Source of the DNA: Prorocentrum cordatum
Lineage: Eukaryota
NCBI GenBank assembly: GCA_963575745.1
Contig: CAUYUJ010000145.1
Location: forward strand, 62,001-117,650
DNA length: 55,650 nucleotides
Direction of reading: 5' to 3'
Part shown: one piece after another, positions 2,036-55,650 of the stretch
Layout: every line of letters starts with the position of its first letter
How positions within the stretch are numbered: the stretch's first letter is position 1
Position numbers and translations under genes: made by a program
Notes under the pieces: model-generated
What the model was told of the DNA's origin: nothing
What the model saw: only the letters and a program-made list of their open reading frames with translations
The model's database searches: none

Positions 2036-2462
2036 ACAAAAGGTCTCTCGAACAACTTCCGGCGCCGCCTGTGCGCTCCAGCGCAGATCCAAGAAATCCG
2101 CGCGGAGCGCCACAAGTTTCTGATTCGGCGGTGAAGAAACCTTCCTTCAGCAAACCACCCGTTAGTGAAAACGGCCTAGGACCGAAACAGACGGACTTGG
2201 ACCCGCAACAATGACAGCCGCGACGCCCTCTCGCGAACCGAAAGCGACCAATTCGCTAATCGACGTGTCAGGGTAGAAGGTCGATCAACCTCCGAATGAT
2301 TATGGCGTTTGTTCTTCTTCGATTCGCAGGCCCTCGCCGATCTTCCACACACACACACACCCCGGCCCCCGCTGGCATGACGTCGCTCGCAGACTTCGCG
2401 CCACGGGCTCCTCGAGACTGCCGGGATTCTGCGGGGGCCTGGGAGGCTCCAAGCAGCAGTCG

Positions 2463-2621
2463 TAAGTCGGGCATGTCCCCCTACAGGCGGATGTTGGACG
2501 AAACATAAAAAAATAGTCAACGAAATACTCACAAATTGGGAAACGTGGTTCAAAAGTCGTCCCCAGACTGCTCTTGTACTATTCTTACACATTCCTTCTG
2601 TAGAGGGACAGGCCCGACTTA
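2463..2621. mobile_element. MITE-like element, GTCCCCAGACT family, copy 1
   Basis: TIRs taagtcgggcatgtccccctaca / tgtagagggacaggcccgactta (21/23), AT-rich interior; homologous copies at 46929 and 49775. Confidence 0.75.
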
Positions 2622-2940
2622 ACAGCCGTCCCCGCGCGGCACCTGCGCCAGGGAGTTCGTCGCGCACAGGTTCTCCCCGGGGTTGTCCAAGCCTGAGGGT
2701 GGGGGTCGAGCTGTTCCTCGTTCTTCAGCCTGCTAGGCTTCTCCTGCTCCTGCTCCTGCTCCGCTCTCCTCCTCGTGTGCCGCTGTCTCCTCCTCCTCGT
2801 CCTCCTCCTCCTTCTCCTCCCTCGTCCTCCTCCTCCTCAGCCATTTCCCGCCCGAGCCGCCCTGGCCTGCGGGGGCGCGCGCGGATGGTGCAACCGCCAA
2901 CTTCGAAGTGGCGTTGCGGTTGCGAGTCACCCTGTCGACG

Positions 2941-4160
2941 TCAAAAGGTCGGCATCAAAAGAGGTGGGTGCCCAACGTCATCAGCTACAATGCGGTGACG
3001 GGCATGCGCCGTGCCAGGTGCGGAGTCCGCCTCCCTCGCCCCCTCGCCTTCCCCCTCCCCCTTCTTTTCCTCCACCTACTGGCGAGCAATAGCGCCCGCC
3101 AGCCGCAGCGGCGCTGTTGCAGAGACGCAGATCAGCTACGAAGCTGGGATCGGCCTCAGCAGCGACAACGTTGCTGGAGGCAGGTCGAGCAAGTTGGTCA
3201 TCAGCTACAGCGACGGGACCAGCACGTGCGACACCAAAGCAGAGCCCGACGTCCTCACCTACAGCGCGGCAAACAGCGCATGTGAGAAAGGCGGGCAGTG
3301 GCAGCATGCCCTGGCAGGGCTCCGGAACACGGAAGCAAAGCTGGAGGCTAACGCGCTCAGCTACACGGTTGCCATCAGCGTGCGCGAGAAGAGCAAACAG
3401 CGCGCCCTCAACCACAGCGCCGCAAGCAGCGCGTGCGAGAATGGCGGGCAGTGGAAGCAGGTTTCGGCAAGTTTCCGAGAGAAGGAGGCAGAGCTGGAGC
3501 CCGACGTCCTCAGCCACAGCGTTGAAATCGGCGCGTGCTGGACAAGCGAGCAGTACACAACTCGAGGCAGCGGACCAGTGCACCCCGAGGCGGCAGCAGG
3601 CGGCAGTACAGGAGCAGATCCACCCAGCTACAGTTCTGGGATCAGCTCGTGCGCAAAGACAGGCAGTGGCAGCAGGCGCTGGCAATGCGAGAAGGGCACG
3701 CAGGGGCAGCACGCTGCTGACACGCGAGAGGCAGAAGTGCAGCGGCGGACATCCTCAGCTACGATTCTCAGATCAGCTCATGTGCGAAGAGCAGGAGCCA
3801 GCCAAGACCAGCTACAACGCTGGGAGCGGTTTGTGCGAGAAGGGTGGCAGCATGCGACAGTGTTGGAGCAAACTTCCTCAGTTACAATTCTGGGATCAGC
3901 TCGTGCACGAAGGCAGGCAATGGGAGCAGGCGCTGGCACTGCGAGAAGGGCACGCAGTGGCAGCAACTGTCACTGGGAGAAGGCGGAAATGCAGGCGCGG
4001 ACGTCCTCAAGTACAGTTCTGAGATCAGCTCGTGCACGAAGGCAGGCAGTGGGGCACGCAGGGGCAGTGGACGCTGGCGCTGCGAGAAACCGTGAGGAGT
4101 GGGAGGCGAAGGCAGAGCCCGACGTGATCAGCTACAATGCTGGACGCGAGGGAAAGGCAA
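2941..4160 (+). pseudogene. Degenerate pentatricopeptide-repeat (PPR) array
   Basis: Repeated EPDV(L/I)(T/S)YSA..SACEKGGQWQ.AL units (PNVISYNA, EPDVLTYSAANSACEKGGQWQHAL, SYNSGISSC, EPDVISYNAG) spread over three frames. Confidence 0.8.
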
Positions 4161-4209
4161 GCAACACGTGCGGCATCCTCCTCCTCCTCCTCCTCCTCCT
4201 CCTCCTCCT

Positions 4210-4309
4210 NNNNNNNNNNNNNNNNNNNNNNNNNNNNNNNNNNNNNNNNNNNNNNNNNNNNNNNNNNNNNNNNNNNNNNNNNNNNNNNNNNNNNNNNNNN
4301 NNNNNNNNN
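4210..4309. other. Assembly gap (100 N) within a (CCT)n tract
   Basis: Run of N. Confidence 1.
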
Positions 4310-5164
4310 CTCCTCCTCTTCCTCCTCCTCCTCCTTCCCTCCTCCTCCTCCTCCTCCTCCTCGCCTTTCTCCTCCTCCGCCCTCTCCTGCTCCTCCTCCA
4401 CCTCCTCCTGCTGCAATCACGACTTTGATGGGGCCCGGCGTCATGATTATTCCATGACGTCGACCTCCAGAGGCCTCGACCCATTCCCAGGGACAAGTTT
4501 TTCGTTCCGAGTCGTTTTCTGACGGTCCCGAGGCCCGGCGAGGGCCCCCCGAGGCCCGAAACGAAGAACAACTGTTTTGTCGCACTTTGATCATGAATCG
4601 ATGGGGGTCTGGGATTTCAGCTTGGCTGCAGATTAGCAGGCGAAGAGAAGGTGTAAAACAAGCTCTTCCCCCGCTGGGGGGCGCCTGCCCCAGGGCGGCG
4701 GGAAAGCTTCTGCCCCAGGGCTGAACCTAAACGGTGTCTTTCGTTGTCGTTTTGTGCTCGTTGTCCCTCGCTTTTGTCTCGCATCGCTTGTTTTCCCGCG
4801 CTTTTGTCCCCCCCTCCCTCTCGCTGGAAAGAGGAGAGAGGAGGAATCGGCGTGGTGGTGGTGTATATTCTTTGGACCCCCAAATCGGCCTTTATCGCAA
4901 AACGAAGTCGAAACGAAAACGGCCCACGAAAGTGCCAAAAACACCGTTTAGGTCCAGCTCTGTTATACCCTTACGGTGGCACGTCGGGGCATTAACTGTC
5001 CAGCCGCCGCGGGGCAGGTGTCCCCAACGGCGGAACAATGTATGTCATACCGTTCTTCGTCGGCTAATGTACAATAGGGTCCCGACCTCAAGAAACCGGC
5101 CACAAGAAACCCAACCCTGAGACCCCAGGACGTCCGTTGATGTTTTGTGTGGGGACGTCACTGG

Positions 5165-5360
5165 AGGCCTCCTAGATGGGGTCGGAGCAGGTGGGGTCGG
5201 AGGATCGCACCGCATCGCCAATGCATCGGCGATGCATCGCCGATGCATTGCCGATGTCGACGTGAAGCAAATCGGGCCCCACATCGAGCCGCATCGGAGA
5301 TGTATCAGCGGTGCGGCGCGATCCTCCGACCCCATCCGCTCCGACTTTCTCTAGGGGGCC
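5165..5360. repeat. Inverted-repeat element with an internal 44-bp near-perfect palindrome
   Basis: Arms 5181-5214 / 5312-5345 (31/34), extended by ggcctcctag / ctagggggcc; palindrome 5213-5256 centred on atgcat. Confidence 0.7.
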
Positions 5361-5807
5361 TGGAGCCACGCTCTCCACAGCAGAACCATCGAAACCCAAG
5401 AAACCCGGGGCACCCTGGAGGCAAGCCGGATGTGTCTTGGCACGGGTCCTCCTCCTCCTCCTCCTCATCCTCCTCCTCCTCCTCCTCCTCCTCCTCCTCC
5501 TCCTCCTCCTCCTCCTCCTCCCCTGTAATGTAGACGATGCAGCTGCTGCGCACCGCGCGGGGCCTCCCGAGGGTTTCCTCACGAGTGGGCAAACCAAAGA
5601 ATGGCATGTGCGCGTCGCTGCAGCAACGATCTGTGAAGGTACGTCGTCACTCTGAGGCGCACGCAACCGAAAGGCGAGTTCCCCTTTGTCCTCCCTCGTT
5701 TGTCCCTCCTCTCCTCCCTCGTCCCTCACTCCCTCCCTCACACCCTCCTCCTCCTTCTCGAACTTATCCTCCTCCTCCTCCTCCTCCTCCTCCTCCTCCT
5801 CCTCCTC

Positions 5808-5825
5808 TAGCCGTTCTGGCTCAGG
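5808..5825 (+). other. Relict dinoflagellate spliced-leader-like sequence at the 5' end of LINE-A
   Basis: tagccgttctggctcagg vs dinoSL ...TAGCCATTTTGGCTCAAG: 15/18, all differences are transitions, exactly at the (TCC)n/unique junction. Confidence 0.65.
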
Positions 5826-6033
5826 CATTTCGCCTGTGCTTGCAACAGCTTATCCTCAGAACGGCACACAGCTATTGCGGGCTGAATTGGCTCGTATTCC
5901 ATTTCATTCAGTTCGCGGGATCTCAACCCGCACGCTTCCATTTGTGAGCTCCTGCAGGAGCATCTCTTCACGACGTCCCCATCGGCGGCATGGCGGGTGG
6001 CTCTGCTGTCGGAGGCGGTAAAGGGCGCGTGGC

Positions 6034-9000
6034 GTGGGCGCCATGGCACTCGAAGTGGTCCAGTCCTCCTCCCTCTGGTCCTCTGGTGGTCTCCAAGGCG
6101 AAGCGCCTCGGATTGGAGCCGTCCGAGTGCCGAGGCGCCGCGACCACACCCAGTGGCCGCCGTTGGTGCCAGGCCTCCAACGTCCGCCTGCTACTCATGT
6201 GGATGCTGGTCATGGCCACGCTCCTGACAAGCGGTGGACATGCTGCTGGTGTGGATGCAAGAAAAACGAAGGCCGCTTCTACTTCTGCAAGCACTGCGGA
6301 GCGCTCAAGTCCGACTCCGCGGTGCCATCATCGACCTGGTCTTACGGTGGAGCGTTGGCCCTCTTCGAGGATGGTGCTGCAGGTGGAGGTGGCAAAGCTG
6401 GAGGTAAAGGACTTCCGGCAGGCGCTGGAGGCATCAAAGGAGGCAAGGGGCTCCCCAATGACGGTGGCAAGGGCCCCACCCTTCCGGGTGCAGGTGCCCC
6501 CGCCGCAGATGCGCCTCCGCTCACCAGCGAGGAGTACCTCCAGTTGTCGGGCCTCTGCGCAAAGATGGGCGACACGCAGGGAGCAGAGGCGTACAAAACG
6601 GCCGCTGCGGCTCTGCAGAAGCCGGCGGCTGCTCCTGAGGCCGTGCAGGTCCGTCTTCAGAAAGCGCACAGCAAGGCTCGAGGCGTCGAGAAGAGGTTGG
6701 AGGCAGCTTGCAATAAGTTCGACCAGCTCGAGTCCCAGTTGGAGTTGCAGCGTTCAGCTGTCATTCAACTTCGTGCAGAACTGGTCGCGGCGGAATCAGA
6801 GCATGGTGATCTCGTACGCAAGCTTCATGCTGAGTTGCCCCCTGCCACGCCAGCGGCCGGTGGCAACAAGCTCTCCATGGACGACCTGCTTGACGAAGAG
6901 AAGTTTGCGGCTGCCTTCGACGTCGACGTGGGTTCCGCCTTCCAGGTGGGCGTTGACGACGAGCTCTCGGCCGAGGACCAGACTGAGCTCCAGAACCGCA
7001 TCGAGCAGTTCAAGACTGGCATCTCCTCCATGGCAAAGAGCCTCTTCTCGGAGGCTAAGTCCAAGGTCGACGGCCTCAAGGCGGAGCACTCTGCGCTGGC
7101 GGCTCGGATGGCGGCGAAGAAGCGTCGCACTGGAGCTGACGGAGAAGGAGTGGCCGCTGGTGACACAGCGGGCGCTGCCCCCCCAACTGCTGGCGATGGC
7201 CAGGGCGCCCAGGCCGCGGCAGCTTCGGCCCGTCCGGAACCCCAGGCGCCCCCAGCAGGCGGCGCCGCTCCCGGCCCTCCCGCGGCTGCTGAACCGCCAG
7301 CGCCTTCTGCATCCGCGCGTTCTCGCGCTGACCGCATCGCAGGCAAGGGTCACTCTTCTGAGCCACCCCCCCTGGAGGCACCTAATAATCCTTCGGTCCT
7401 GGCCCGTCTCCCGGTCGTCTCGGGGTGCCGTGTCCCTGCTTCTTTGGGACTTCAGGTTCTGGGCTCAAGGGAAGGCTCTTATGGGCAAGCGCTCCAGGGG
7501 GGATCTGAACTTGCTTTTCAACAGCTGCCTGGAGCGCGATCTCTGGCGCAGCTCGCTCTTTGGCGCAGGAGGGGGATGCCCCCTTTGCTTGCCCAGTGTG
7601 TAGGGGAGCCTGCACAGCAGCGTCTGTCTCGCCCTCGATGGTCAGCGTTGCTTGCTCGCTCTCTTGCTGTGCTCAATGGCGACAGCTCCACCTCGTCCAT
7701 TGCCCGCGCTAGTTTGCAGCATGCTTCTTCGTTTGCGTTCAGTTGCACTTCGTTTGCTCGCCAGCAGGCGCCCGGCAATTTCGCCGCCCCTGCTCGTGCA
7801 TATCCAGTGCTCTCTGTGGCGAAGTTTGCTGTTCACCGCGTCTCTTGTGTGAAGCTGCCACTGGAGATGCCCTTGATTTCCAGTCAGCGCGAGGCTTCTC
7901 TCGCCGTCTCGTCTGGTGAGCGCCCTTATGATGGTGCTGCCCCGTTCGCTCTCTCCCCTCTCGCTCCTCCTCCCCCTCCTCCTCCTTCGCCTCCGGCGGC
8001 AGAGGCAATTGCGACCGAGGGGCAAGCTAACATCTTTAATGTTTTCTTGCCCTGCTTTACTGAACGCGGCGGAGCCGACGCTCTTGGGCCCCTCGCCTGC
8101 CGTTCCAGTTTCCTTGGGCCTGAAGCTTCGTTGTTTTCCCCCGGCCTCGCCGCCCAGGGCAAAGTGGGAGAGTTGCTCTCGCAGAGTCCTGGAGGTGCGA
8201 GTGCAGGCCAGGGGAGCCACGGCGAGCAGTCACCAGAGAATATCGATGCGGTGGCCCTCAAGGTTCAGACCATCAACTGCAATTCTTGGGGCAGGATGAA
8301 GTCCATGTTGGAAGGCGCTAACACGCATGTGGTGCTGTGTCAAGAACACAGGTTGCTGACTCAGGAAGCGATCGATCAGGCCAGCTCCTGGTGCATTCGC
8401 CGCGGATGGAAGTCGATCTGGTCGCCTGCGGTTGCGACGGATTCGGGGGATACCAGCTCCGGAGTCGCCATTTTCGTGCGCAGCTGGCTGGGGTGTCGTC
8501 CCCTTCCGGGGGGTCCCATTTGTCCTGGACGAGCCGTCGGGTGTTTCGTGGAGCTGCCAGGGACCCCCCCTCTTGTGATGCTGTCGGCCTACCTTCATCA
8601 TTCGGAGGGCCTGTCCGACAACAATCGCGAGATTCTGGCCAGGATCGGCGAGAGTGTTGATTGTCTGCACTTGCCGTGGCTTCTGGGTGCTGACTTCAAT
8701 TTCGAGCCCAAAGAGCTCGAGGACGCTCAGTTCATCAGCGAGCTCAGAGGGTCTCTTGTTTTCCCCAGCGTATGCACTCATTACCCTGCGGGCCCGCCGA
8801 CCACCTTCGACTATTTTGTGTGCTCGGGCGGCTTAGGCAAAGCTGTCGCGAAGGTCGAAACGCTGTTGGACACGGAGCTCTCACCCCATCGCCCGGTGGA
8901 GCTTTCGTTTCACCCCCGTTTGGCCGTCCTTCAAGCCTTGACTTTTCGCAAGCCTCCCCCTCTTCCGAGTGCCAGGGTTGTGGGTCCTGCTCCTCGTGAC

Positions 9001-12205: not shown

Positions 12206-12857
12206 TTCTCGATATTTTACGGCACCTGCACCTCCCTCCGTTGCAGGTGCTCTGTCAGGGCCGACCCCTGATTTGGAGGCGTGGGCGTGGAGCTCAAAAA
12301 AATCCTCCTCCTCCTCCTCCTCCCCCTCCCCTCCCCTTCCTCCTCCTCCTCCTCCTCCTCCTCCTCCTCCTCCTCCTCCTCCTCTTTCTTCTCCTCCCTC
12401 CTCCTCCTCCTCCTCCTCCTCCTCCTCCACCTCCTGCTCCTCCTCCTCCCCCCACCCCCTCACCCTCCTCCTACTCCTCATCCTTATCATCGTCTTCCTC
12501 CTCGTAAGCACCCCCAGACCCGCGATGCACATCACAAAAACCTCGATGCACATCAAAGTTGCTAGCGCTTATGAGTGGGAACGCCTTTTTGCGGACCCCC
12601 GCTGGCCGGGTCAATAATCTCTTGGGGGCTCCCTGAAGCCGTCCGGAGGCGTCTTGGAGGCCTTTTGGGCAGTCTTGGTGCCATCTACAGCCGTCCTGGA
12701 ACGCCCTGGGGCCGTGTCGGACCCCCCTTGGGCCGCCCTGACGGCGTCCTGGAGCCAATGTGGACGGTCACGGGAGCATCCTGGCGCCTGCTGCGGGGCT
12801 CCTCGACCAACGCCGCTCGGCTAGTTCGCCCCTCCCGGGCCAGGACCCCGTCCGATC

Positions 12858-28410: not shown

Positions 28411-28735
28411 GTCCTCCCCCCTCTTCTCCTCCTCCTCCTCCTCCTCCTCGTCCTCCTCCTCCTCCTCCTCCTCCTCCTCCTCGTCCTCCTCCTCCTCCTC
28501 CTCCTCCTCCTCCTCCTCCTTGAAGATGCCCCAACAGGCCCCCGAGAGGCTTCCCACGGACAGCGACGAGGAGCAGCATCGGGCGCGCAGCACGGGCACG
28601 CCGAAGGCGTGCCTTCCCCCGTCTGGCCAGGCACGATTCTGTTTCGAACAGGTCCCTGGGCCTGCTCAGAGAGGATCCCGCCAAGAGCTTCCAAGCAGAT
28701 CTGAGGACCTGTTCTCAGTCGTCTCCACTGTGTAC

Positions 28736-30399: not shown

Positions 30400-30441
30400 G
30401 GAGGAGGAGGAGGAGGAGGAGGAGGAGGAGGAGGAGGAGGA

Positions 30442-30472
<31 letters not shown>

Positions 30473-30985
30473 AGGAGGGAGGAGGAGGAAGGAGGAGGAG
30501 CGAGGAGGAGGAGGAGGAGGAGGAGGAGAGGAGGGAGGAGAGGGGAGGAGGAGGAGGGGGAGGAGGAGGGGTCGTGGGCCGCGTCGGGGCCACGCCAGGA
30601 CCCCACGGCACGGGGGGCCTCCAAAAAAAGGGGGGGCCGCGGCAGGCTCGGGAGCGCCCCGGGCGGGCGCGGCAGGGCGGCCGGAGGTCGGAGGTGCCGG
30701 AGGCGCGGCCGCACGCGCACACGGGGGGCCTCTGCCTGGTCGGGCCCTCTTGGGCGGGTTGGGAGGAGGAGGAGGAGGAGGAGGAGGAGGAGGGGGAGGA
30801 GGGGGAGGAGGAGGAGGAGGAGGGGGAGGGGGAGGAGGAGCGAGGAGGAAGAGGAGGAGGAGGGGGAGGGGAGGAGGAGGAGGAGGAGGAGGGGAGGAGG
30901 AGCGGAGGAGGAGGGGGAGGAGGAGGAGGGGGAGGAGGACAAGGAGGAGGAGGAGGAGGAGGAGGAGGAGGAGGAGGAGGAGGAG
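30400..30985. repeat. (GGA)n tracts
   Basis: Direct inspection. Confidence 0.9.
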
Positions 30986-33367
30986 GCTTCTTGGCGCCGC
31001 ACCTCGGCCTCGCAAGAATCTGCCGGCGGTCTCGGCGGCATTCCTGGGGCTCCGCCGCCGCCACTGAGCCGTGCATCCGCGTGGACGCGCGGGCAAAGCC
31101 ACGCCAAACGCGCGCCTGTGCCAGGAGAACATACATACGCACGCCCAACGAGTCCGCGATTCCGTCTGCCAAGCGCGCGGTCTCGGCGGCATTCTTCGGG
31201 CTCCACCGCCACCACTAAGCCGTGCATCCGCGTGGTCGCGTGGGCAAGCCACGCCAAACGCGCGCCTGTGCCAGGAGAGCATACATACGCACGCCAAACG
31301 AGTCCGCGATTCCGTCTGCCAGGCGCGAAACCATTAAGCTATTGCGGCGCCGGCGACGAAGGTGTCAATTCGAGCTCCTGCGCTCGGGTTCCTCTTGGGG
31401 CCCTCTTGGTGCTCTCTTTGGCTGTCTGTTGGGCCGTCTTGGGACTCGCCTGGGCCGTCTTGGGGCCTCTATGGGGGCCTCGTTTGCTTTTCGGGGGCAA
31501 GTTTTTGGGGGCCCTCCGCGCCATGTTGGACGCGGCTAAAACAAGACAGCGAAAATGCAAAATATGCACGATCCCCAAAACAGGAATGGGGCGATTTCAG
31601 CCTCTTGCGACCTCCTTGAAGGACCTCTTGGGGCAGTCTTGCGCTTTGTGGGGAGCTCTGGGTCTGGCCGGTCTTGAAGCTATATTGGGCGGTCTTGAAA
31701 CGATCTTGGGGCGCTCTCGGGTCGTCTTGAAGGCCTCTCGGGTAATCTGAAGCCATCGTGGGTGCTCTTGGAGCTCTCTCGGTGCCCAAAACGGGCCCCG
31801 GGCCCGGGGGGCTTAGGGGGGTGGACCCTTTGCCATTGTGTACAGGGGGCGGCCGGGGGACCGAGAGCATGACAGGCTTCACATAGCGTCCCTCTGCCAA
31901 GCTCGGCACGGTCCTCACACGGACCGTGCCCCCCCGTGAGCTCTACGCTTGGGTCCAGGATCAAAAATGGCATGGCGTCCCTCCCCCCGTCTCGGCACAT
32001 CTTTCACACGGATCGTGCCCAAGAGGGATGTAGCTTCACGTGGGTCCGAACAGGGAGGAATCGCATAACATCACGTCCTCCTGTGTATGTTGACTGTCTC
32101 CTCGCACGGATCGTATCCCACAAGGAGCTCCACCGACAGCCCCAGAGCCAATGTTCGCATCCCTCCGCCCCGCCCATGTCGGCACACCCCTGACCTGGAC
32201 TCTGAGTTCGGGGCGGGGCCTCGCGGCAAGTTTCTCAGGGGCCTCTTGAAGCCATGAGTTGGATCGTCAGTTTGGGGCCTTTTGAGGCTTCTCTAGGAAT
32301 GGAGTGCAGGATGCAGACGCGAGGCGTCCCATACGCTTCTGGGGGCCTATCGGGAGGCCTCATGGGAGCCTCTTGGAAGCATCGAGGGGGCCTCTTCTTG
32401 GAGCCTCCTGTGGGCCTTTTCGAGGCTTGCTGGAGCTCCTGGGCGACCCATTGGAAGCCCGGTGGCGGCCTCGGGAGCTTCGTGGAGGCGGAGGGCTCAA
32501 AATGCCAGTTGGAATTCCCCATCTCTGGCCATCGCTCGGACGTCCATTCTCTGTGTTTTTGTTCGGTTTCGTGCGTGGCTTTTTCGCCAAATGATCAGGG
32601 AATGCTCCTCGATGGCCCTCGCCGAAGGAAACGTGCACACGTCCGAGCGATGCCAAGATCTTGGGTCCCTCCAAGGGCCCTCCAGTGACTGTGTGGGCCG
32701 TCTTGGGCGCCTCTGGGACCGTTCTGGGACAAGTTGGTGCCTCTTGAGCAGCTCTGGGGGGCTTGTGAAAGGCCTGATCGGACTTTGGGGCCGTCTTGGG
32801 GCTCTCTTGGGGCTTCTCGGGCAGCTCTGGGGAGTTTTCTGGGGACCTTTTCGGGCCTCTTGGAGTCACTTGTGGCCTCTTGGAGACTACTGGGGGCGTC
32901 CTGGAAGCCTGTTGGGGATTCTTGGAGGCCTCGGGGGACGTTTGTGAGGCCTCCTGAGAGCCTCTTGGGGGCCTCTTGGAGGCCGCTTGGGGCGTCCTGG
33001 GGGGCCTCTGGGGGGTTTCTTCGGGCTTCTCGTAACCTCCTGGGACCCTTTTGAAGGCGTCCCCCGGCCCTCTGGGCCTCCTGGTGGCCTCGCGGAAGCG
33101 CGAACAGCCCACCGAAAGCGGAAAGGCGAGAAGGCCAAAATCACTGCTTGTCCTTAGGTTTTGAAGGTTTTGAGCTTCTGGGATGCGCTCTAGAGGGTCT
33201 CCTGGAGGTCTCCGGGGCTGTCCTGGGCGCCCCTGGAGGCCAGGCTCGTGGTGACCGTGAGAGGCCCCGGGAGGCCGTCTCGAGGGTGGTTCCGAGCTGT
33301 CGCGGGGCCGCCGGGATGGCGCTCCCTGACGATCTGGGGCGGCCCAAAGGCGGTCCCAGGCCTTGCC

Positions 33368-44535: not shown

Positions 44536-45399
44536 TGAGCCAGATCGACAGTCTGAAAACACAGGTACACTCGATGCGCTCTAAACGTTGTTTTGTCTCA
44601 CGTCGGACGTGCCCCTACGTACCGAGGAGGAGGAGGAGGAGGAGGAGGAGGAGGAGGAGGAGCAGGAGGAGGAGGAGGAGGAGCAGGAGGAGGAGGAGGA
44701 AGAAGGAGGGGGAGGTAGGAGGAGGAGGAGAAGAGGAGAGGAAGGAGGAGGAGACGGAGTGGAATGGCGAGCTGGAGGTGGAGGACACGCACAGCATGCA
44801 CCCCCCGATGGGGCGCCGCACGAGCATGTCGCTCGGAAGAGGAGGGGCACGTGGGGCTCCAGGGTCGGGCCCGGCCGACGTATAGATTGCACGTGCGCTC
44901 CGAGGCAACGCAGACGTATAGCGTGCAAGAACGACTCTCGATGTTTGGGACATTTCTATCGGAATGGCGTATGGCGTGCACGCGTTTGAGTGTTTCTGTT
45001 GTCCCTGGAGGGGGGGCCGTGCACGCTGTGTGTGGCAACTTGACCGTACACATGTGCCTGCACGTATGGAACCACCACTCCGCAGCCTCGCGTGCCCGTT
45101 GCTGGGCATGCTAATGGCCCTTCCCCCCTCCCATCCTGGCGGCGCGACCGAGGGGCTGCTCCTTACAAGGCGCTGGACCCTCGGCCATCACCCCCCCCCC
45201 TCTTGTCGGGTGCTGCTAGAAGCACCCCTGGCCCAAGGTACCCCCAGGATTCTCGGGGTGGCCCAGACGGCCTCCAGGGCACCCCTCACGAGGCCCGGAG
45301 GGCCCCCTCCTCCTCCTCCTCCTCCTCCTCCTCCTCCTCCTCCTCCTCTCCACCTCCTCCTCCTCCTCCTCCTCGTCCTCCTTCTCCTCCTCCTCCTCC

Positions 45400-46238: not shown

Positions 46239-46928
46239 GGAAATCGTGGTCTCCTCTCTCCTCTCCTCTCTCCTCTCTCCTCTCTCATCTCTCCTCTCTC
46301 CTCTCTCCTCTCCCCTCCTCCTCCTCCTCCTCCTCCTCCTCCTCCTCCTCCTCCCCCTCGCCCTCCTCCTTCTCCTTCTCCTCCTCCTCCTCCTCCTGCT
46401 CCTCCTCCCCCGCTTCCTCCTTCTCCTCCTGCTCCTCCTTCTCCTCCTCCTCTTTCTCCTCCTCCGCCTCCTCCCCCTCCTCCTCATCCTCGTCCTCTCG
46501 CCTCCAACTTCTCAGCTTTTCTTCCTCTAATCGGTCGCCTTCCACCTCCTCCTACCTCATCATCGCTCCTCCGTGTCATCATCCTCCGAGCCTCGTCGTT
46601 CTCCTTCTGCCTCGTTGCTCCTCCTTCTCCTCCTCCAACCAAGTCCAAACCCACCTTCCCCTACAGCGTCCGCCCGACGAGGGGCTGGGATACAGACTAC
46701 TCGATTGTTACCCCACCCCAAGCACCGACAGCACCGCGCGGGTTCGCGCCCTCTCTTCGCTGGGATGGCTTGGCAGGCGGCAGGTCAGGGGGTACATCAT
46801 ACCCCCGCTTGGCCGCAACCTCAGTGCGGACGAAGAATCATTGCAAACGCAACTGTCCACCGTGGGGAACGACAATCAATCCACAGGCGCGGGAGGGACC
46901 TTCATGCCCATATGCCCCGCCACTAGGG

Positions 46929-48201: not shown

Positions 48202-49444
48202 GAATCCCACCAGCCCTTTGGGCGTGAGTGGTTTAGCGAGCTCTCTGTCCTCAAAACCCCTTCTTCCCCTTCGGGGAGGGGTTTACCCCTCCCCCTACCC
48301 CCTCCCCCTGGGCCTGGAGAGGGGGGGCCGCGGGTCGTCAGGGGGTCAATTTCGACTCCTGGGAGGGCTAAAAAACGACACCTCTCACGAGGATTCTGGC
48401 CCCGACGGGGGCGGGCAGAAAAAATGATCTCCTCTTCTTTGAAACCAAAATCATTGATTTTACTACGGTTTCGGCCCCATTTTGGCCTTCTGAGGGGGCA
48501 GCGCTCCTCTTCCTTCATAGCAAAATCATTGATTTTACGAAGGTTTTGGGCTCATTTTCTCCTTCTCAGGGGGCAGCGCTCATTTGCGCTTCTGGGGAGG
48601 TCGCAAGAGGCCCCAATATGGCCCCAAGAGGCCCCCAGGAGGCTCCCAAGAGGCCTCCAAGAGGCCCCCAAGAGTCCCCCAAGAGGCCCCAAGAGGCCCC
48701 CAAGAGGCCCCCAAGAGGCCCCAAGAGGCCCCAAGAGGCGCCAAGAGGCCCCCAAGAGGCCCCCAAGAGGCCCCCAAGAGGCCCCCAAGAGGCCCCAAGA
48801 GCATCCAAGAGGCCCCCAAGAGGCCCCATGAGGAGCCCGAACGACTCACACCAGGACGAGGGGGCCGAACGACTCGCACCACGAAGAGCCCGAACGACTC
48901 ACACCAGAAGGAGGGGCCCGAACGACTCACACCAGGACGAGGCGCCCGAACGACTCACACCACGAGGAGCCCGAACGTCTCACACCAGGACGAGGGCCCC
49001 GAACGACTCACACCACGAGGAGCCCGAACGACTCACACCAGGAGGAGGAGCCCGAACGACTCACACCAGGACGAAGGGCCTTGTCCGAAGACAACTCCAA
49101 CCACTGAGAAGCCCCGAACGCTCACTCCAGGGTCGAAGAGCCGAAGACACACACCACGAGAGCCGAACGACTCACACCAGAAGATGGGCCCGAACGACTC
49201 ACACCAGGACGAGAAACCCCAAACGACTCAAACCACGAGGAGCGCTTTCTCTCCTCCTCCTCCGCCTCGTCCTTCTCCCGCTCCCACCACAAGGAGGATG
49301 TACAAGGAGGCGGGAGGAAGGAGGAACAGGGGAGATATGCGGGGCCAAGCGGACACACGCCTGAAAAACACGACTGTCGGCATGCTTCGCGAGAGTTGCT
49401 GCTGTGAGATGGGCTGGTGGGGATACGCGAAGCGTAAAGAATTT
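48202..49444 (+). mobile_element. Helentron/HINE-like non-autonomous element, copy C (internal ccccaagagg and ~30-bp cccgaacgactcacacca tandem repeats)
   Basis: gaatcccaccagccc ... atgggctggtggggatacgcgaagcgtaaagaattt. Confidence 0.65.
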
Positions 49445-49774
49445 CTCATCCGTCGGTCGGAAGAAGTAGGCAGAAACATAAAGTAGGAAGGCGTTGAAGG
49501 AGATTGGGCGTCCGCCCGCCCCCCTGAAGAGGAGGCAAGAGGTAAAACCGATCGACTCTTGAAGTAGGACGGCGGCCAACGTAGATTGGGATCCGAAAAT
49601 CCAAAAGAAACTAAAATCACCGACCGGCGGGTAAACTGTCGGGGGTCCGCGCGGAGTTCTTGGGTCGGCGCTGGGCCCACGAGATCCGCGCGGACCTCCG
49701 AACGTTGACGCCAGTGTAGCCGGCGCTCCTCGAGACGAGGACGGGGGGGTGCTAGTTAGTAGAGGTGCCCCTGG

Positions 49775-50109
49775 CCTAGGATGAGGTGGGGCATGTCCCC
49801 CTTCAGGCGGGTTTTGGACGATAATTCAAAAATGCCCTAAAAATATTCGCGAAAGTGGCCAAACATAGTCGATAAATCGTCCCCAGACTATGTTTGTACT
49901 ATTTTTGAATAAGGTGGAGACTTTAAGATAAGGATGCCTTCGATAAGGAACCCAAAGTCTCGCGACCGATGGGCGGCCGAACGTGGGCCACCCACCTCGC
50001 CTTGGAACAATAAAGAATGCAACAGGGTCTGGGCCCCAGGAAGACATTCCTTATCCAATGCCGCGACCGTATTCCTCCTGTTGAGGGAGAGGCCCGACTT
50101 AAGCCTAGG
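49775..50109. mobile_element. MITE-like element, GTCCCCAGACT family, copy 3, with a ~160-bp nested insertion (49911-50070)
   Basis: Same TIRs and core; the insert has its own IR gataaggatgccttc / gaagacattccttatc. Confidence 0.7.
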
Positions 50110-50647
50110 ATATCCTAAGCCTGCCGCTCAATTTTTTTAAGCCCCCCAGGGCCCTCCTTGCCTCGCGAGGGGTGCCCTGGAGGCTACGAGGGGGTCTCCT
50201 CCTCCTCCTCCTCTTCCTCCTCCTCCTCCTCCTCATCCTCATCCTCACCCTCATCCTCATCCTCCTCCTCCTCCTCCTCCTCATAGCCGCGCGGCCCAGG
50301 TGGACATGCACCAGCGGCCGCTCGGCAGGCGGGGGAGGCCTCGGGAACCCCGACTTCGAGGCTGGCCCCCACCCGCCCCGATATCGCACTCACCCTTCAC
50401 TCCACATTTCTGCTTCACATCATTCTTGTTTCTTCTCGCGCTGCTCGTCTGGGCCCTCACGTCGGCCTGCTTCGTGGGCCAGGACCTCAGCGAGCCAGAC
50501 TGGATCGTCTGCTGCACAGAGGCGGCGCTCGGCAACTCTGGTCTGCTCGTCAGCATTACAGAGAGAGCGTCGGCTGTCAGCGGAGCGAGATTACATCAGC
50601 AGACGGCGTGTCAGGCTGTCAGCGGAGCGATTACATCAGCAGACGTG

Positions 50648-53600
50648 ATGCGAATCTTGGTGTGGAATCCACTTTCCGTTTCTGATCGAGATCGTGAGTT
50701 AGAGATTCTGTATGCCTTCAAATCTTTTGACGTACTTGTGCTCATCGGGACTCAACGCAAGTGTTCCCCGAGCGCTCCGTATCATGTGGAAGATCTCCCT
50801 GGGTTCAAAGTGGTCCATTGTGGGTGGTCTGCTAAAGGAGCGCTGACTAACTGTTCTTGTGGCATTGCTTTTTACTTGAACAAAAACACTGTACGTGCAC
50901 GTGATGTAGTTCGCATCTGGACTGCACCGCCTGACATTCGTGGACGCGCAGCAGCAATACGAGTAAAATCGTTATATGGTGATCTTTCGGTGGTGGCGTT
51001 GTACTACCCTCCTCGGTCTCGAGATCCACGCGAGCAGCAGCAGTTATCGACGACGATTTCACGTGTGACGGACTTTGGGCATCATGTGCTGTCATCTCTT
51101 CCGTGTCGTACGTTTCCTGTTGTGGCTACTGATCTTAATGACGGTATCGGGCTCGTGGGTGGTAAGCACGGTCACGTGATGGTCGAGAGCAAGGCCCTGG
51201 GGCCTTACGGAAGGGGAGTCGAACACCAGGCTGGGGGACTCATGAGAGAACTGGCTGAGACGTACGAGCTGTCGGTTTTAGATACTGTTTTCAGTGGAGG
51301 GCCTAGTTATTATGGGGTACCTACGAAGTCGACGACGACGGATCGGACTCCCTCGACTTCCCCACCTTCGGCGACGGCGGCTCGTCTGTTTGCAGCGTCA
51401 GGGAAAGCTAAGCAGCAGAGTTGTTCATGGATCGATCATGTTCTGATACCGTCGTCACACGTGCCGAGTGTACGACGATTCACCCAACCTTTTCGGACGG
51501 CACGCCGACTTCAGGCCATTCCTGACAGCCGGCCTCGAGATCATGTACCATTCATTCTTGAGATTGATTTACGTCCGTGTCATGTCGATCGTGAGGAGCG
51601 GAAAAGGTGGGACTTCGTGGGGCTCGGACAGGCACTTCGTAGTGAGTTCCATGCTGATGCCTTTCGCCAGTCAGTGGAACGCGCGATCGGCGAGGTTCTT
51701 GAGGCAAAGGGATGTGTCTCAGTTGAGCAGCTTGTCCAAGATGCTGAGTCTCTAGAGGCTGCTTGGCACGAACTAGTCGACCTCCTTCAGCGTCAGGGTT
51801 TAAGCATGTTCGAAGCAAGTCCCAGGGCCCTTCCTGCTGCTTATCAGGAGCTAGCTCGTGAGCGCGTTCGGCTTCTTAGGTTGCGTGGACAGGCTCGGGC
51901 TGCGGTTACGGACAATTTAGAAGATGTTCTAGCTCTGTCGCGTCTGACCCGTCTGTGTCGTGGGCTGCGGAGGCGTCTTCGTCAGCAGCGTGAGGCTCAG
52001 CTTGCAGAAGAACTTGCAGATGCTCACGCACGGGGCCTCATGTCTGAGGAGTGGCGGATCTGTCGACTCATGGCTGGAGCTGGGGTAGGTCCGAGACGGC
52101 GTAGGTTTGGACACATAGCTGCCTATACCCCGAGCATGCAGGAGTGGGTGGAGGATTTGGCGATGCCGTCGAGCAGTGGGGGAATGTCTGCGAAGCCGAT
52201 CGACGGGGATAAGTTTTTGGAGCTTGCGTCGAAATACGACACGGCGGATTTTCCGACGACCGAGGAGGTGGAGTGGGGGAGGGCTGATCTGGACAGAATT
52301 TCCAAGGGGTTCCGCACTGCTCGTCGTCGTCGCGCCGCGGTACCGTGGAGCGTGCCGAACGAGGTATGGTCGTTACTTCTTTCTCAGCGCCCTGAGGGGC
52401 CAGATCGTGTTGCTGGACTCGGGGCCCCCCAACCTCGAGGACGGGGTGAGCTAGTTGCGCGGTGGGTAGCAGCCATACTAACTAAAGTTCGACAGCATGG
52501 CCGTTTAGTGGCCCAGTGGAATCAGTCATTCACGTACCAACTGCCCAAGGACAATGGGAAACTGCGGACCCTGGGAACCCGCCTTCTACATGGGTTATGT
52601 TCTTTTGGTAAAATGTGGGTGAAGACGGCCTCCAGACGGGCCAGGGACATCCCCTACCACGACTACGGATATTTACCTCGGCGATCGCGTACGGGAGCTG
52701 TGAGGGCCACTGCCGCCCTAACCTGGAGGGCCCAACGGGGCCGACTGTCTACGGTGGATACCAAACATGATATGCGAAATGCGTTCGGGTCTGTTCAACA
52801 CAATACACTGGATGCTGCTGTTGCTCGTATATATGATCCTGCTGATGCTGACATCCTTCGTCAGCGCCATCGTGCTGCTTGCTTCATGGTGTGTGCTGAG
52901 GGGGAATCGAAGGTCTTTCAGAACTCTGAGGGGAACTACATGGGGGACTCAAATGCGGCCACCGTTTTCCAGGAGGCGTTCGCGCCGCCGATCCGTGCCT
53001 GGCAGGAGGCGCACCACAGCGACCAGGCCAGCCAGCTGCAGGGAGTGTGTACCATCTCGGGGACACGCTGCGATTTGTCTCTGAGAATTTTCGCTGACGA
53101 CGTCAATAAGACCCACGTCGTCCAGGATCTTACCAGTGCACGTCGTATCATTTACAAGTCTGACAGACTGTTGAACTCTCAGCTGTCGCCTCACGGGATC
53201 TACCAGAGTGATGGGAAAAAGCAAGTTCTGCCACACTACGTCGGGCATGGTGCCAACCGCTTCACACGAGCAGCGTTTCAGGCTGGGGATAATCTACCAG
53301 GGCTCGTCCTGCCTGTGGTGCCGTTCCTGGGTACTTTGTTCGAGTCTTCGGGTTCCTGGAGCTCCGAGGTGTCTGCTCGCTGTGCCGCTGTTGTCAGAGG
53401 GTGGGCCCACATGAGACGCTTCTGGACGGAATGTACGGCCTGGCGTTCGAAGAAAATGGCTTTTCGTAGCAACGTGATCGGGGCGGCGGTGTCTGGACTC
53501 ACGGCCGTGGTGCTCTCAGAGTCTCAAGAGGCCCGATTGGACTCCATCGTTCTTAAGTACCTGAAGGTGTTGCTGGGGGGCGTTGCTGTTAAGGTTCCGA

Positions 53601-54184
53601 TGGTCGCGGCTGACGGGTCCGAGCATGTTGTGATCCGAACCCCTCCGGCCATCCAGATCTGGAAACGTGCGGGTCTTGTTCCGATTCCCTTGGAGCTACG
53701 GGTTCAGAGACTTAAGGAGTGGCAGAAGGTGGCGAGGTCCCCCGTCTGGCACGTCCAGCAGCTCACTGCGGTCTTTGGGAAGCTCGACTTTGAGGCCCCG
53801 ACGCCGTCGCCCTTCGAGTGGTTTCCCTCGGCTCAGGTTCACCTCCAGGACACGTCGAAGACCAATCCGTGGGCCCGTCAGTTTTTTCGGGACCTCGAGT
53901 ACCTCGGGCACACGGAGGAGGGGAGGAATGTCTTGGAGTTGACGGGCGGGGACTACCTAAACGTGTTCAGAAATGACCAGGATGCGTTTCATGCGTTTCA
54001 GAAGTTCGATGTCCAGCAGCTGAGGGCCGAATGGCTCCTTCGTGAGGTTCCTGTTGCCGAGGCCCCTCCTGACCCAGGTGAGCTCGCTGCGGGCGATCAC
54101 GTCTGCACCCTGCTTACGGGAGACGGGCTTTCATGCGATCGTCGCTTTCAAACTCGTCGTGCGCTTCTTGCTCACCAGCGCTAG
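50648..54184 (+). CDS. LINE-B APE endonuclease + reverse transcriptase; continues in frame past a TAG into C2H2 fingers (to ~54450)
   Basis: APE: LVWNP, LIGTQ, LYYP, TDLN, WIDHV, DHVP; RT: LPKDNGK, HDMRNAFGSV, GNYMGD, FADD; fingers C..C.RRF..RRALLAHQR, CIAC..F..H, CPQC..F..LQRHVVSH. Confidence 0.9.
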   Translation: MRILVWNPLSVSDRDRELEILYAFKSFDVLVLIGTQRKCSPSAPYHVEDLPGFKVVHCGWSAKGALTNCSCGIAFYLNKNTVRARDVVRIWTAPPDIRGRAAAIRVKSLYGDLSVVALYYPPRSRDPREQQQLSTTISRVTDFGHHVLSSLPCRTFPVVATDLNDGIGLVGGKHGHVMVESKALGPYGRGVEHQAGGLMRELAETYELSVLDTVFSGGPSYYGVPTKSTTTDRTPSTSPPSATAARLFAASGKAKQQSCSWIDHVLIPSSHVPSVRRFTQPFRTARRLQAIPDSRPRDHVPFILEIDLRPCHVDREERKRWDFVGLGQALRSEFHADAFRQSVERAIGEVLEAKGCVSVEQLVQDAESLEAAWHELVDLLQRQGLSMFEASPRALPAAYQELARERVRLLRLRGQARAAVTDNLEDVLALSRLTRLCRGLRRRLRQQREAQLAEELADAHARGLMSEEWRICRLMAGAGVGPRRRRFGHIAAYTPSMQEWVEDLAMPSSSGGMSAKPIDGDKFLELASKYDTADFPTTEEVEWGRADLDRISKGFRTARRRRAAVPWSVPNEVWSLLLSQRPEGPDRVAGLGAPQPRGRGELVARWVAAILTKVRQHGRLVAQWNQSFTYQLPKDNGKLRTLGTRLLHGLCSFGKMWVKTASRRARDIPYHDYGYLPRRSRTGAVRATAALTWRAQRGRLSTVDTKHDMRNAFGSVQHNTLDAAVARIYDPADADILRQRHRAACFMVCAEGESKVFQNSEGNYMGDSNAATVFQEAFAPPIRAWQEAHHSDQASQLQGVCTISGTRCDLSLRIFADDVNKTHVVQDLTSARRIIYKSDRLLNSQLSPHGIYQSDGKKQVLPHYVGHGANRFTRAAFQAGDNLPGLVLPVVPFLGTLFESSGSWSSEVSARCAAVVRGWAHMRRFWTECTAWRSKKMAFRSNVIGAAVSGLTAVVLSESQEARLDSIVLKYLKVLLGGVAVKVPMVAADGSEHVVIRTPPAIQIWKRAGLVPIPLELRVQRLKEWQKVARSPVWHVQQLTAVFGKLDFEAPTPSPFEWFPSAQVHLQDTSKTNPWARQFFRDLEYLGHTEEGRNVLELTGGDYLNVFRNDQDAFHAFQKFDVQQLRAEWLLREVPVAEAPPDPGELAAGDHVCTLLTGDGLSCDRRFQTRRALLAHQR

Positions 54185-54473
54185 GCCTCGGGTGGCCAAC
54201 ACGGGGTCCCTTCGCTGGTCTCTAAGCTCGTGGTTACGAATCAATGTATCGCTTGTTCGTCGACCTTTCGATGCCGTGACACCGCTGTTCGACACCTCGT
54301 GAATGCGTACCAGTATGGGCGTTGCCGCGTGGACTCTTCGAAGTATGATCCTCCGATTGTGGGCCCAGATATCAGGATATGTCCCCAATGTCAGGAGCCG
54401 TTTGAGTCTCTCGAGCAGTTGCAGAGGCACGTAGTCTCACACTTGCCACTTCCACTACCAGAGTTTGTGTGGT

Positions 54474-55196
54474 ATGTTCTCGGCGGTCCCTGCTGCGAGC
54501 TCGTCCGTCGTGAGCGAGTCCAGCAGGCGTCGGCCTCCACCTGCGTCCGAGGGACGAGGAGACCGCGTGGCGAAGAAGGGCGCGCAGCGGCAGGGGAAGC
54601 AGCGCGTGCCCAAGGAAGAGCTCGAACAGCTGGAGACGCTAGAGTTGGAGCAGATCAAGCGTATCGTTCCAGTGGTCATGAAATTGTTGCTAAATGTGAC
54701 GATGAGGCAGCGGCAGTCAGAAGCAGTCTTGCTGGTCACGCTGGTGATGCCAGAGAATGCGATCCCCGTTCAGAGGAGCAGGGCACGCGTCAAGGCGTGG
54801 GTGGAGTCCGCTCAAGACCTTCGCGCCCGACAGAAGGAAGAAGACATCGCCCAGACGGGCACCATCTCCCTCGCGTGCTTGGTCGGCCTGACGGAGGGGT
54901 GCACAGAGGCGGGCCAGTCGGTAGGCGCCGCCAATGCAGGCAAGCTCGCAGCGTGGCGCCAGGAGGTGTCAGCGCTGAGCCTGCCCGAGGTCTCGCAGAA
55001 GTACCCGTTCGCCAAGGTGCAGACAGCCCACAAGAGCGACACCGTCAAGATCTTGATGACAGCGGATCCTTCCTTGCACGTGTTAATCGACTGCTTGGTG
55101 CAGCTGGGGGCGGAGAAAAAGGTCGGGGTGGCGCCGATGAACCATATGGAGCGGGTGCTACAATCGTTTCTGATGGACGGCGAGATGGACGCATAA
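54474..55196 (+). CDS. Uncharacterised 240-aa helical protein encoded downstream of RT in LINE-B
   Basis: Intact ATG-TAA ORF with GC3-rich codons, basic N-terminus, C-terminal GVAPMNHMERVLQ; decayed homologue at 600-1140 (-). Confidence 0.75.
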   Translation: MFSAVPAASSSVVSESSRRRPPPASEGRGDRVAKKGAQRQGKQRVPKEELEQLETLELEQIKRIVPVVMKLLLNVTMRQRQSEAVLLVTLVMPENAIPVQRSRARVKAWVESAQDLRARQKEEDIAQTGTISLACLVGLTEGCTEAGQSVGAANAGKLAAWRQEVSALSLPEVSQKYPFAKVQTAHKSDTVKILMTADPSLHVLIDCLVQLGAEKKVGVAPMNHMERVLQSFLMDGEMDA

Positions 55197-55650
55197 ATGT
55201 TCATGGTGAGAAGTTCGATTGCAGCCGCAGGACACGAACATTTGCTTCCCGCCGAAATTTGCCCCGCCAGATTTTGCCTCCCGCGCGGCTGCCGCCATCG
55301 CCATCATTATCATCAGCATTCGACTCGAATGATGAAGCTTCTGCGACGGCATCTGCTCGTCCTCCCTTGTCACGATGTACTGCGACGTCCAGCGACGTGA
55401 GGGTGCGTGCATCGTGTGCTTCGAGGGCGTCGGGAACTCAGACTTCGGGGTCCTTGAGGGCGAGGCGTGAGGCTCGCCCGCCTGCCGCCGCTGAGGCCGC
55501 CGTTTCTTCCTCTCCTCCTCCTCCTCCTCCTCCTTCTAAACGGGCTAGGAAGCACCAGGACGCTGTTCGGGTTTTTCGGAGTGCGGGCTTCGGCGAGAGC
55601 CTGTCGGGGTCCGCGGCCCGTCTCCTGGGGTACAGTGTGTAGTGCGTGTT

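Follow-up and report, generated by a model that had tools for sequence, protein, structure and literature searches.

Accessory proteins of long interspersed nuclear elements (LINEs), to our knowledge, are textbook 5' open reading frames (ORFs), and a locus of Prorocentrum cordatum raises the question of what an intact 240-codon ORF is doing 3' of the reverse transcriptase (RT) of a LINE-like element and inside the polymerase gene itself. The locus lies in a stretch of 55,650 nucleotides (contig CAUYUJ010000145.1 of assembly GCA_963575745.1, positions 62,001 to 117,650), which as a whole is called the window here. On its plus strand, positions 50292-55650 form one long coding unit, made up of a long ORF (ORF2) with an endonuclease-like region, a putative RT and three C2H2 fingers, and a short ORF (ORF3) in another frame. 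On balance, we lean towards reading ORF3 as an accessory gene of a single-ORF, ORF1-less LINE-like lineage, nested in the +1 frame of an ORF2 that is kept free of stops. The lineage occurs in dinoflagellates, with Prorocentrum probably among them. The parts of the unit are listed below, with reference to a contig of one DNA run (X1).

50292..50647, plus strand: 5' leader; the X1 contig starts at 50292 and ORF2 homologues start later
50648..54181, plus strand: ORF2 core, with an endonuclease-like N-terminus, RT, a long linker and a first C2H2-like finger at its end
54182..54184, plus strand: in-frame TAG between fingers 1 and 2 in the window assembly; CAG (Gln) in X1
54185..54442, plus strand: C2H2 fingers 2 (about 54245-54307) and 3 (54377-54442), in the ORF2 frame
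54428..54473, plus strand: finger/ORF3 junction; LPLPLP codons, about 76% pyrimidine, ending in AGAG (54458-54461), 12 nt before the ORF3 ATG
54443..55642, plus strand: ORF2 tail; the RT frame is open for 398 more codons, across ORF3 and for 148 codons past it
54474..55196, plus strand: ORF3, 240 aa, ATG to TAA, in the +1 frame relative to ORF2
55216..55437, plus strand: high-depth stretch 3' of the ORF3 stop; X1 depth 102 against about 10 on either side

ORF3 and the ORF2 around it

Homology marks ORF3 as a genuine conserved gene. An exhaustive phmmer search over 1.84e9 representatives returned 67 relatives at E<=1e-3, among them 21 at E<=1e-10 and 4 at E<=1e-30. All are short proteins of 50-310 aa (66 of 67), except for one of 750 aa. 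P0001, a 239-aa protein named from P. cordatum and annotated as a stand-alone protein, was the one relative recovered by a word-index search and is 51% identical to ORF3 from the first Met through the C-terminus. The exact sequences of ORF2 and ORF3 are absent from a collection of 15 billion proteins. A word-index search for longer, fused forms of ORF3 matched 0 of 4782 candidates, which is weak evidence. A metagenome scan with an alignment of the close ORF3 subfamily gave 67 pattern matches, 0 of them confirmed, and viral-contig scans with two ORF3 alignments gave no match. An earlier reading of this DNA from its letters (the sequence-only reading) had placed an intact 240-aa ORF in the +1 frame about 30 nt after the last finger. 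This is what we find, with the ATG 31 nt past the last His codon of finger 3 (54440-54442).

The same reading had described the product as an unknown helical protein. AlphaFold gave a confident model with a 48-sequence alignment (predicted local distance difference test, pLDDT, 87.8; predicted template modelling score, pTM, 0.80) and an unusable one with 2 sequences (pLDDT 46.7). The predicted protein is indeed partly helical, but the model as a whole is mixed alpha/beta behind a basic disordered tail; the tail takes up residues 1-46 and carries a net charge of +7, and residues 47-240 form a compact alpha/beta domain. The N-terminal tail is net positive in 20 of the 26 full-length family members. 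No solved fold was matched. Pfam held 0 families for ORF3 at E<=0.1, and a PDB profile search gave no sequence match (best E 0.33). Foldseek returned nothing at E<=0.001 from the PDB (best E 0.26, TM-scores <=0.22 among the matches listed) or from BFVD (best E 0.084). VIA-align against 48,161 chains reached at best a Z of 6.3, over about 50-57 residues of long helix only, and the ESM Atlas returned 0.81 with no family.

As had been pointed out from the sequence, the element is without ORF1 and its leader contains a short duplication. No plus-strand ORF of at least 100 aa lies upstream of ORF2 in 49487-50306. By eye, the duplication is imperfect, about 32 nt in unit length (about 50574-50645) and placed just before the probable ORF2 start. 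A (CTC)n microsatellite (50196-50282, detected by TRF) precedes the leader. ORF2 probably starts at ATG 50648 and not at 50306, because its homologues begin with MR(I/V)V.WNP and the window equivalent is MRILVWNP. The endonuclease-like N-terminus spans about 50648-51700; it scored 0.95 in the ESM Atlas, with 174 shared features and 16 matches in Exo_endo_phos clusters (PF03372/PF14529). Further downstream, FADD at the catalytic motif, preceded by D..NAF and GD, was recognized by eye, and we take these to be RT motifs. A PDB profile search with ORF2 gave no RT match. The region of fingers 2 and 3 was matched by the Pfam families zf-C2H2_4 (E 2.9e-7, residues 65-86) and zf-C2H2_2 (residues 11-40), and besides the zf-C2H2_4 motif two C2H2-like motifs are present.

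The RT frame had been reported as open across ORF3 to 55642. It is stop-free from 54185 to that position, but in the window assembly it is interrupted before that by the TAG at 54182-54184, which is CAG in X1. The T/C discrepancy at 54182 reflects either variation between alleles or strains or a mistake in the assembly. The X1 contig covers 50292-55268 and differs from the window at 17 positions, without indels. In the ORF2 core 8 differences are synonymous and 3 non-synonymous. Each of the three in the ORF3 overlap alters the RT frame, and two of them are silent for ORF3. The remaining 3 are in the leader (50411), in the stop codon (54182) and in the finger region, where a residue is changed (54363).

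Linkage and nesting in diverged relatives

The linkage of ORF3 to the retroelement was assessed with 13 N-terminal segments of ORF3 family members, which were compared with three ORF2s. The extension of P0007 matches finger 3 (E 3.7e-10). That of P0025 matches ORF2 residues 885-1061 (E 7e-16) and 1251-1275 (E 2.6e-4), and that of P0065 the first ~116 residues of ORF2, the endonuclease N-terminus (E 8.6e-15). The other 10 of the 13 segments had no ORF2 match, 7 of them being merely long basic tails that start with Met. At L001, a metagenome locus available as DNA, a C2H2 finger is followed by LPFPLP and then by Met-Pro-Ala-Thr-Leu and an ORF3-like body. This pentapeptide is the N-terminus typical of a distant ORF3 subfamily and is in frame with the finger. 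Judged from such matches, ORF3 and an endonuclease-RT-3xC2H2 ORF are physically joined in a number of diverged relatives (P0007, P0025, P0065, L001 and the pair P0071/P0005), and the proposal that the accessory ORF belongs to the RT/C2H2 element and that its homologues are linked to such genes has held up.

The length of the unit points the same way. The P0071 cluster has three 1609-aa members on contigs of 5276, 5136 and 5119 nt, nearly filled by ORF2; the unit is therefore about 5.1-5.3 kb long, with ORF3 inside it and not past its 3' end. An element end before 54474, on which the sequence-only reading would have fallen, does not agree with these contigs, which contain ORF3 within ORF2. The same reading expected 5'-truncated copies to scatter ORF3 as apparent orphan genes. 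Apparent stand-alone or orphan copies do exist (P0001), as does one 5'-truncated, frameshifted ORF3-like fragment (locus L002), and several diverged paralogues are named from one species.

These relatives have further features of their own. In L001, an imperfect tandem duplication of about 25 nt (411-462) in the ORF3-like N-terminal tail shifts the frame; past it the finger frame runs on to 807 without a stop, against 12 or more stops in the third frame. P0065 (304 aa) joins the first ~116-120 residues of the endonuclease to the ORF3 body, without the ORF3 basic tail. P0076 has the same length; the two proteins were recovered from different sources, on a 1598-nt and a 1561-nt contig, and their form may go back to a deletion that spared both ends of the element or to RNA splicing. 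Downstream of the L002 fragment lies a different LINE (2431-7152), with a 699-aa ORF (2431-4530) and then an ORF (4531-7152) that runs off the contig and is endonuclease-like by eye, in the conventional ORF1-ORF2 order. L001 and L002 share no common 3' region by blastn.

The most unusual point, underrated by the sequence-only reading, is the complete nesting of ORF3 in an ORF2 frame that is open in all three full-length relatives. A search with ORF2 residues 640-1292 found only P0071 (1609 aa, 44% identical) and P0072 (1593 aa, 30%) among 8000 scored candidates. Past the last finger, the RT frame continues for 363 aa in P0071 and P0072 and for 398 in the window. For P0071 and P0072 the nesting was inferred from proteins only: the residue sets allowed in the +1 frame were derived from neighbouring residue pairs of the tails and compared with ORF3 relatives, with shuffled tails as the control. 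The +1 frame of the window tail against P0001, the positive control, gave z=21.7. Against the ORF3 family profile, the +1 frame gave z=13.6 for the window (own row excluded), 20.5 for P0071 and 5.1 for P0072, and for each of the three tails 0 of 60 shuffled versions scored as high. In the +2 frame, z ranged from -1.3 to 3.3. The family member P0005 (198 aa) can be aligned, ungapped, with the +1 reading of P0071 residues 1310-1507 and is compatible with it at 194 of its 198 positions; ORF2 goes on from there for another 102 codons. For P0072, a search of this ungapped kind yielded no near-identical ORF3 partner. For P0008 and P0012, reading the residues ahead of the Met in the -1 frame gave weak agreement with the fingers (z 2.8, 2 of 200 shuffles, and z 4.2, 0 of 200, respectively).

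In the window, the openness of the RT frame was compared with random expectation. Within the ORF3 stretch, 15 stops fall in the third frame and 0 in the RT frame. When the synonymous codons of ORF3 were shuffled with its own codon usage, the RT frame was stop-free in 3.6% of 5000 shuffles (mean 2.6 stops); with ORF2 codon usage this was so in 0 of 5000 (mean 10 stops). T occupies 7.1% of the third codon positions of ORF3, against 27.9% in the 50306-54181 ORF and 29.4% in the ORF2 core, and the third codon position of ORF3 is where an RT-frame stop must begin. In the 147 codons past ORF3 (55197-55639), stops are again absent from the RT frame, with 2 and 7 in the other frames; the probability of 0 stops there is 0.02 with mononucleotide shuffles and 0.05 with a first-order Markov model.

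The protein encoded by the tail shows no comparable constraint. The ORF2 tails of the window, P0071 and P0072 have no protein similarity (E>3), and a search for a conserved C-terminal motif in them yielded only FRSA/RSAG-like tetrapeptides, which are not significant. Under ORF2 codon usage, the overlap scores +16.1 bits in the ORF3 frame and -19.9 in the RT frame, and the tail past ORF3 scores +1.5 bits against +27.7 for a control stretch of ORF2 of equal length. These comparisons indicate that ORF3 is the constrained frame and that the overlapping ORF2 tail is open but unconserved in sequence. Both frames are open over the shared stretch beyond chance and remain so in diverged relatives, as is expected of overlapping genes. 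The open-frame statistics, together with the two independent homologues, argue for selection for openness and not for the protein sequence of the tail.

Expression of ORF3, competing explanations and the surrounding DNA

Inspection by eye shows that the finger region gives way to ORF3 at a Met in the window, P0007, P0008, P0012, P0025 and L001, whatever the upstream frame, and most relatives on ~1-kb contigs begin exactly at this Met. In the window, the ORF3 frame has a TAG at 54432-54434. L001 has a comparable junction (cactaac tttccc ag gaccg ATG). The LP.PLP stretch contains 76-80% pyrimidine in both DNA examples, the window and L001, and in each it ends in AG; the junction may be a candidate splice-acceptor-like site.

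We favour translation of ORF3 from its own AUG on a processed RNA over frameshifting. ORF3 would be translated from this conserved AUG on a processed or subgenomic RNA, and in dinoflagellates the simplest route would be spliced-leader addition at the pyrimidine-rich AG just upstream. The routes named in the sequence-only reading (trans-splicing, reinitiation or frameshift) are conjectural, as is the chaperone role that it thought possible. In the window's lineage, the ORF2 frame is kept stop-free across ORF3 and for about 100-150 codons beyond it. We speculate that, with ORF2 open, ribosomes on the full-length RNA would terminate near its 3' end, which would spare the RNA a 3' untranslated region (3'UTR) of about 1.2 kb or favour action in cis. 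The ORF3 protein is probably a nucleic-acid-binding partner in the ribonucleoprotein (RNP) of the element, with the role played elsewhere by the ORF1 protein (ORF1p) or by a C-terminal chaperone domain. Two grounds, and these two, suggest this role: the basic tail, and the analogy with ORF1p and the C-terminal chaperone of the L1Tc element.

Several observations weigh against ORF3 as a nested, separately expressed accessory gene of a mobile element. Both enzyme calls are weak in Pfam: ORF2 residues 1-351 hit 0 families at E<=10, and the RVT_1 match (52643-53104, E 0.0011 to 0.0084) is under the 29.6-bit gathering score, as is that of P0071 (E 4.8e-5). The sequence, fold and language-model searches gave the function of ORF3 no homology support. 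The evidence from P0072 (z 5.1), P0008 (z 2.8) and P0012 (z 4.2) is indirect. The acceptor-like site is drawn from two DNA examples, the window and L001; no DinoSL-like relic with <=3 mismatches was found in the window DNA, and the aligned contigs, none from a run recorded as RNA, end in or cross 54431-54645 without a loose spliced-leader end. The copy is single at >=80% identity in X1, and no target-site duplication or tail is definable, the window ending 8 nt past the ORF2 stop. Moreover, finger and ORF3 Met are in one frame in P0007, P0025 and L001, and ORF3 may be, or may have been, a C-terminal domain of ORF2 and not a separate protein.

This last view can be put as a full alternative, which we judge unlikely: ORF3 would be the C-terminal domain of ORF2, reached by a +1 frameshift near UGG-UAU-GUU (54468-54476) or, in P0007, P0025 and L001, by in-frame fusion. 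Besides the continuous finger-Met-ORF3 frame of P0007, P0025 and the L001 DNA, the single nucleotide between the RT-frame TGG codon and the ORF3 ATG is in its favour, and frameshifting is common among retroelements. However, inspection of the junction by eye, with no dedicated scan, revealed no known +1 shift signal (a zero-frame codon that is slow or a stop). A frameshift would also leave unexplained why the zero frame is open for 363-398 further codons in 3 of 3 elements and why the boundary Met is retained, and the many family members that begin right at this Met on ~1-kb contigs are at odds with it. It is quite improbable, too, that the locus is a domesticated, immobile single-copy host locus with an ORF2/ORF3 pair kept for a cellular function. 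In X1, 50332-55215 is covered at a depth of about 10.5, just like the flank (55438-55650), and no other contig aligns at >=80% identity, the window and X1 differ in the ORF2 core by 8 synonymous and 3 non-synonymous changes, and a marine metagenome run holds near-identical pieces, all of which would suit domestication. Against this stand the debris typical of mobile elements (the 5'-truncated L002 fragment and the 25-nt duplication of L001), the deletion form P0065/P0076, the diverged paralogues named from the same species and the TAG in the assembly copy, and a low copy number per lineage also fits an old, diverse LINE clade.

We consider it very unlikely that the window holds a dead copy, in which a 1-nt indel moved a once in-frame C-terminal ORF3 domain into another frame and the GC-rich sequence behind it happens by chance to lack RT-frame stops. 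The TAG at 54182 in the assembly and the existence of in-frame relatives fit such a copy, and genes rich in GC at third codon positions have few -1-frame stops (mean expected 2.6). However, for the window alone the probability is 0.036 across ORF3 times 0.02-0.05 beyond it, and the long open tail recurs in both independent homologues and in the three 1609-aa members of one cluster. The contigs of X1, X5 and X2 have no indel at the finger/ORF3 junction, X1 reads CAG at 54182, and silent changes are in excess in the ORF2 core. Barely credible, finally, is mere adjacency, with ORF3 as an unrelated host gene or as ORF1 of a second element that abuts the LINE. The annotation of P0001 as a stand-alone protein and the shortness of 66 of the 67 matches would suit it, but the homology data already contradict it: the linkage to ORF2 recurs in P0007, P0025, P0065, L001 and P0071/P0005, ORF3 lies inside ORF2 and not after it, and the 5.1-5.3-kb contigs of the P0071 cluster have no room for a second element.

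A second copy in the window was not found. The sequence-only reading had seen a decayed relative of the same gene order at 600-1560, which our searches did not recover: tblastn with ORF2, the fingers and ORF3 returned only the element itself at E<=1e-3 and noise up to E 50, and ORF3 and ORF2 profile hidden Markov models run against 998 six-frame ORFs matched the element alone, the rest having E>0.3. Among the matches listed, blastn of the flanks against the window returned only the common (CCT)n microsatellite, with no element ends or target-site duplications. Such (CCT/CTC)n microsatellites occur on both strands, for example at 5447-5521, 12303-12444, 28412-28520, 30400-30986, 44624-44737, 46310-46505, 50196-50282 and 55508-55534, and they are unusable as target-site evidence because they are scattered over the window as well as flanking the element. 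Runs X5 and X6, whose kind is unrecorded, gave low-depth contigs over 52973-53215 and pieces within 54431-55500.

The high-depth stretch at 55216-55437, which contains an imperfect 15-nt tandem repeat (55235-55284), may represent a shared 3' module or else an unrelated repeat; the X1 contig breaks at 55268/55290. Upstream of the element, 49000-50109 is an unrelated repeat of very high copy number, with a summed X1 contig depth of about 96,000 (49000-49221) and about 39,000 (49222-49443) and a high depth in X5 and X6 as well. It overlaps a low-complexity ORF (48618-49364) with PRGPQEAPKRP-like repeats and 23-28-nt tandem repeats. Far from the element, a long plus-strand ORF at 2999-4522 consists of repeated units of about 35 residues (...SYNA...ACEKGGQW...) and is broken by a 100-N gap (4210-4309) with leucine-codon repeats on both sides. 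From its look, we take it to resemble a pentatricopeptide-type repeat protein, a kind presumably common in dinoflagellates.

Comparison with known systems and significance

In architecture, the closest parallel discussed here is with the L1Tc/ingi elements of trypanosomatids, which likewise have a single long ORF and no ORF1, with endonuclease, RT and then C-terminal C2H2 motifs. L1Tc/ingi also have short deletion derivatives that keep both ends, RIME and NARTc, and the P0065/P0076 form resembles these. C2H2 motifs C-terminal to the RT are present in our element as well, which alone does not place it in that clade, the likeness being one of architecture only. It differs in that a separate folded domain of about 200 residues, with its own Met and in another frame, is nested in a prolonged ORF2. 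In L1Tc, according to a passage of PMC2805920, the 3'-terminal part (C2-L1Tc) supplies nucleic-acid chaperone activity. Like the ORF1 proteins of LINEs, whether of the coiled-coil/RRM/CTD type of L1 or of other types, ORF3 would be accessory and probably nucleic-acid-binding, and a basic tail with a compact domain would suit RNP formation. Unlike them, it lies 3' and not 5' of the RT, and it gave no Pfam, PDB or fold match that would link it to a known ORF1 type (RRM, CCHC, esterase, PHD, coiled coil).

Several proteins can be made from one LINE RNA by unconventional translation, as in the coupling of ORF1 and ORF2 through the UAAUG of SART1 or reinitiation in L1. Those junctions are short overlaps of a 5' ORF1 with ORF2, whereas in our element the second gene lies downstream and is enclosed by ORF2 over its whole length. 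Long nested gene pairs are, as far as we know, regarded as a viral speciality. The present pair shares with viral overprinted genes a conserved frame with element-like codon usage and a second frame that is open, poorly conserved and compositionally skewed. The codon-usage criterion applied to the two frames follows PMC3744397. In contrast to the viral cases, the host of the overlap is a cellular retroelement, the unconstrained frame is an extension of the polymerase gene, and the nesting is complete over about 240 codons and kept where the ORF2s are only 30-44% identical.

Our literature search found no description of a LINE with a 3' or nested accessory ORF, nor of dinoflagellate LINE structure, although papers that it did not cover could hold one. 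In the review PMC11453091, the passages found on LINEs, retrotransposons and reverse transcriptase contain no element architecture. The nested gene widens the range of architectures known for elements without long terminal repeats: a cellular retroelement has retained, within its polymerase gene, a folded protein that matches no known fold, and this across lineages with ORF2s of only 30-44% identity. It offers a concrete case for the expression of polycistronic or overlapping information in dinoflagellates, where spliced-leader trans-splicing is available. For annotation it carries a warning, as gene callers report only one of the two, either ORF2 at full length (P0071) or the small ORF by itself (P0005).

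A more far-reaching version is conceivable, if on the whole doubtful: a LINE clade may have turned a downstream domain into a separately initiated gene by means of host spliced-leader trans-splicing, inside a polymerase ORF that is held stop-free through that gene and past it. Were this true, the element would be the first LINE to combine a nested 3' gene with a subgenomic mRNA; the stop-free frame would let ribosomes on the genomic RNA terminate close to its 3' end and so serve cis-preference or escape from the decay of RNAs with long 3'UTRs. The element provides an origin for at least 67 sequence clusters of unannotated proteins of about 240 aa in dinoflagellate genomes, transcriptomes and marine metagenomes. 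Under the more far-reaching version, a widespread dinoflagellate family of "dark" orphan genes would stem from copies of the element that are 5'-truncated or retroposed.

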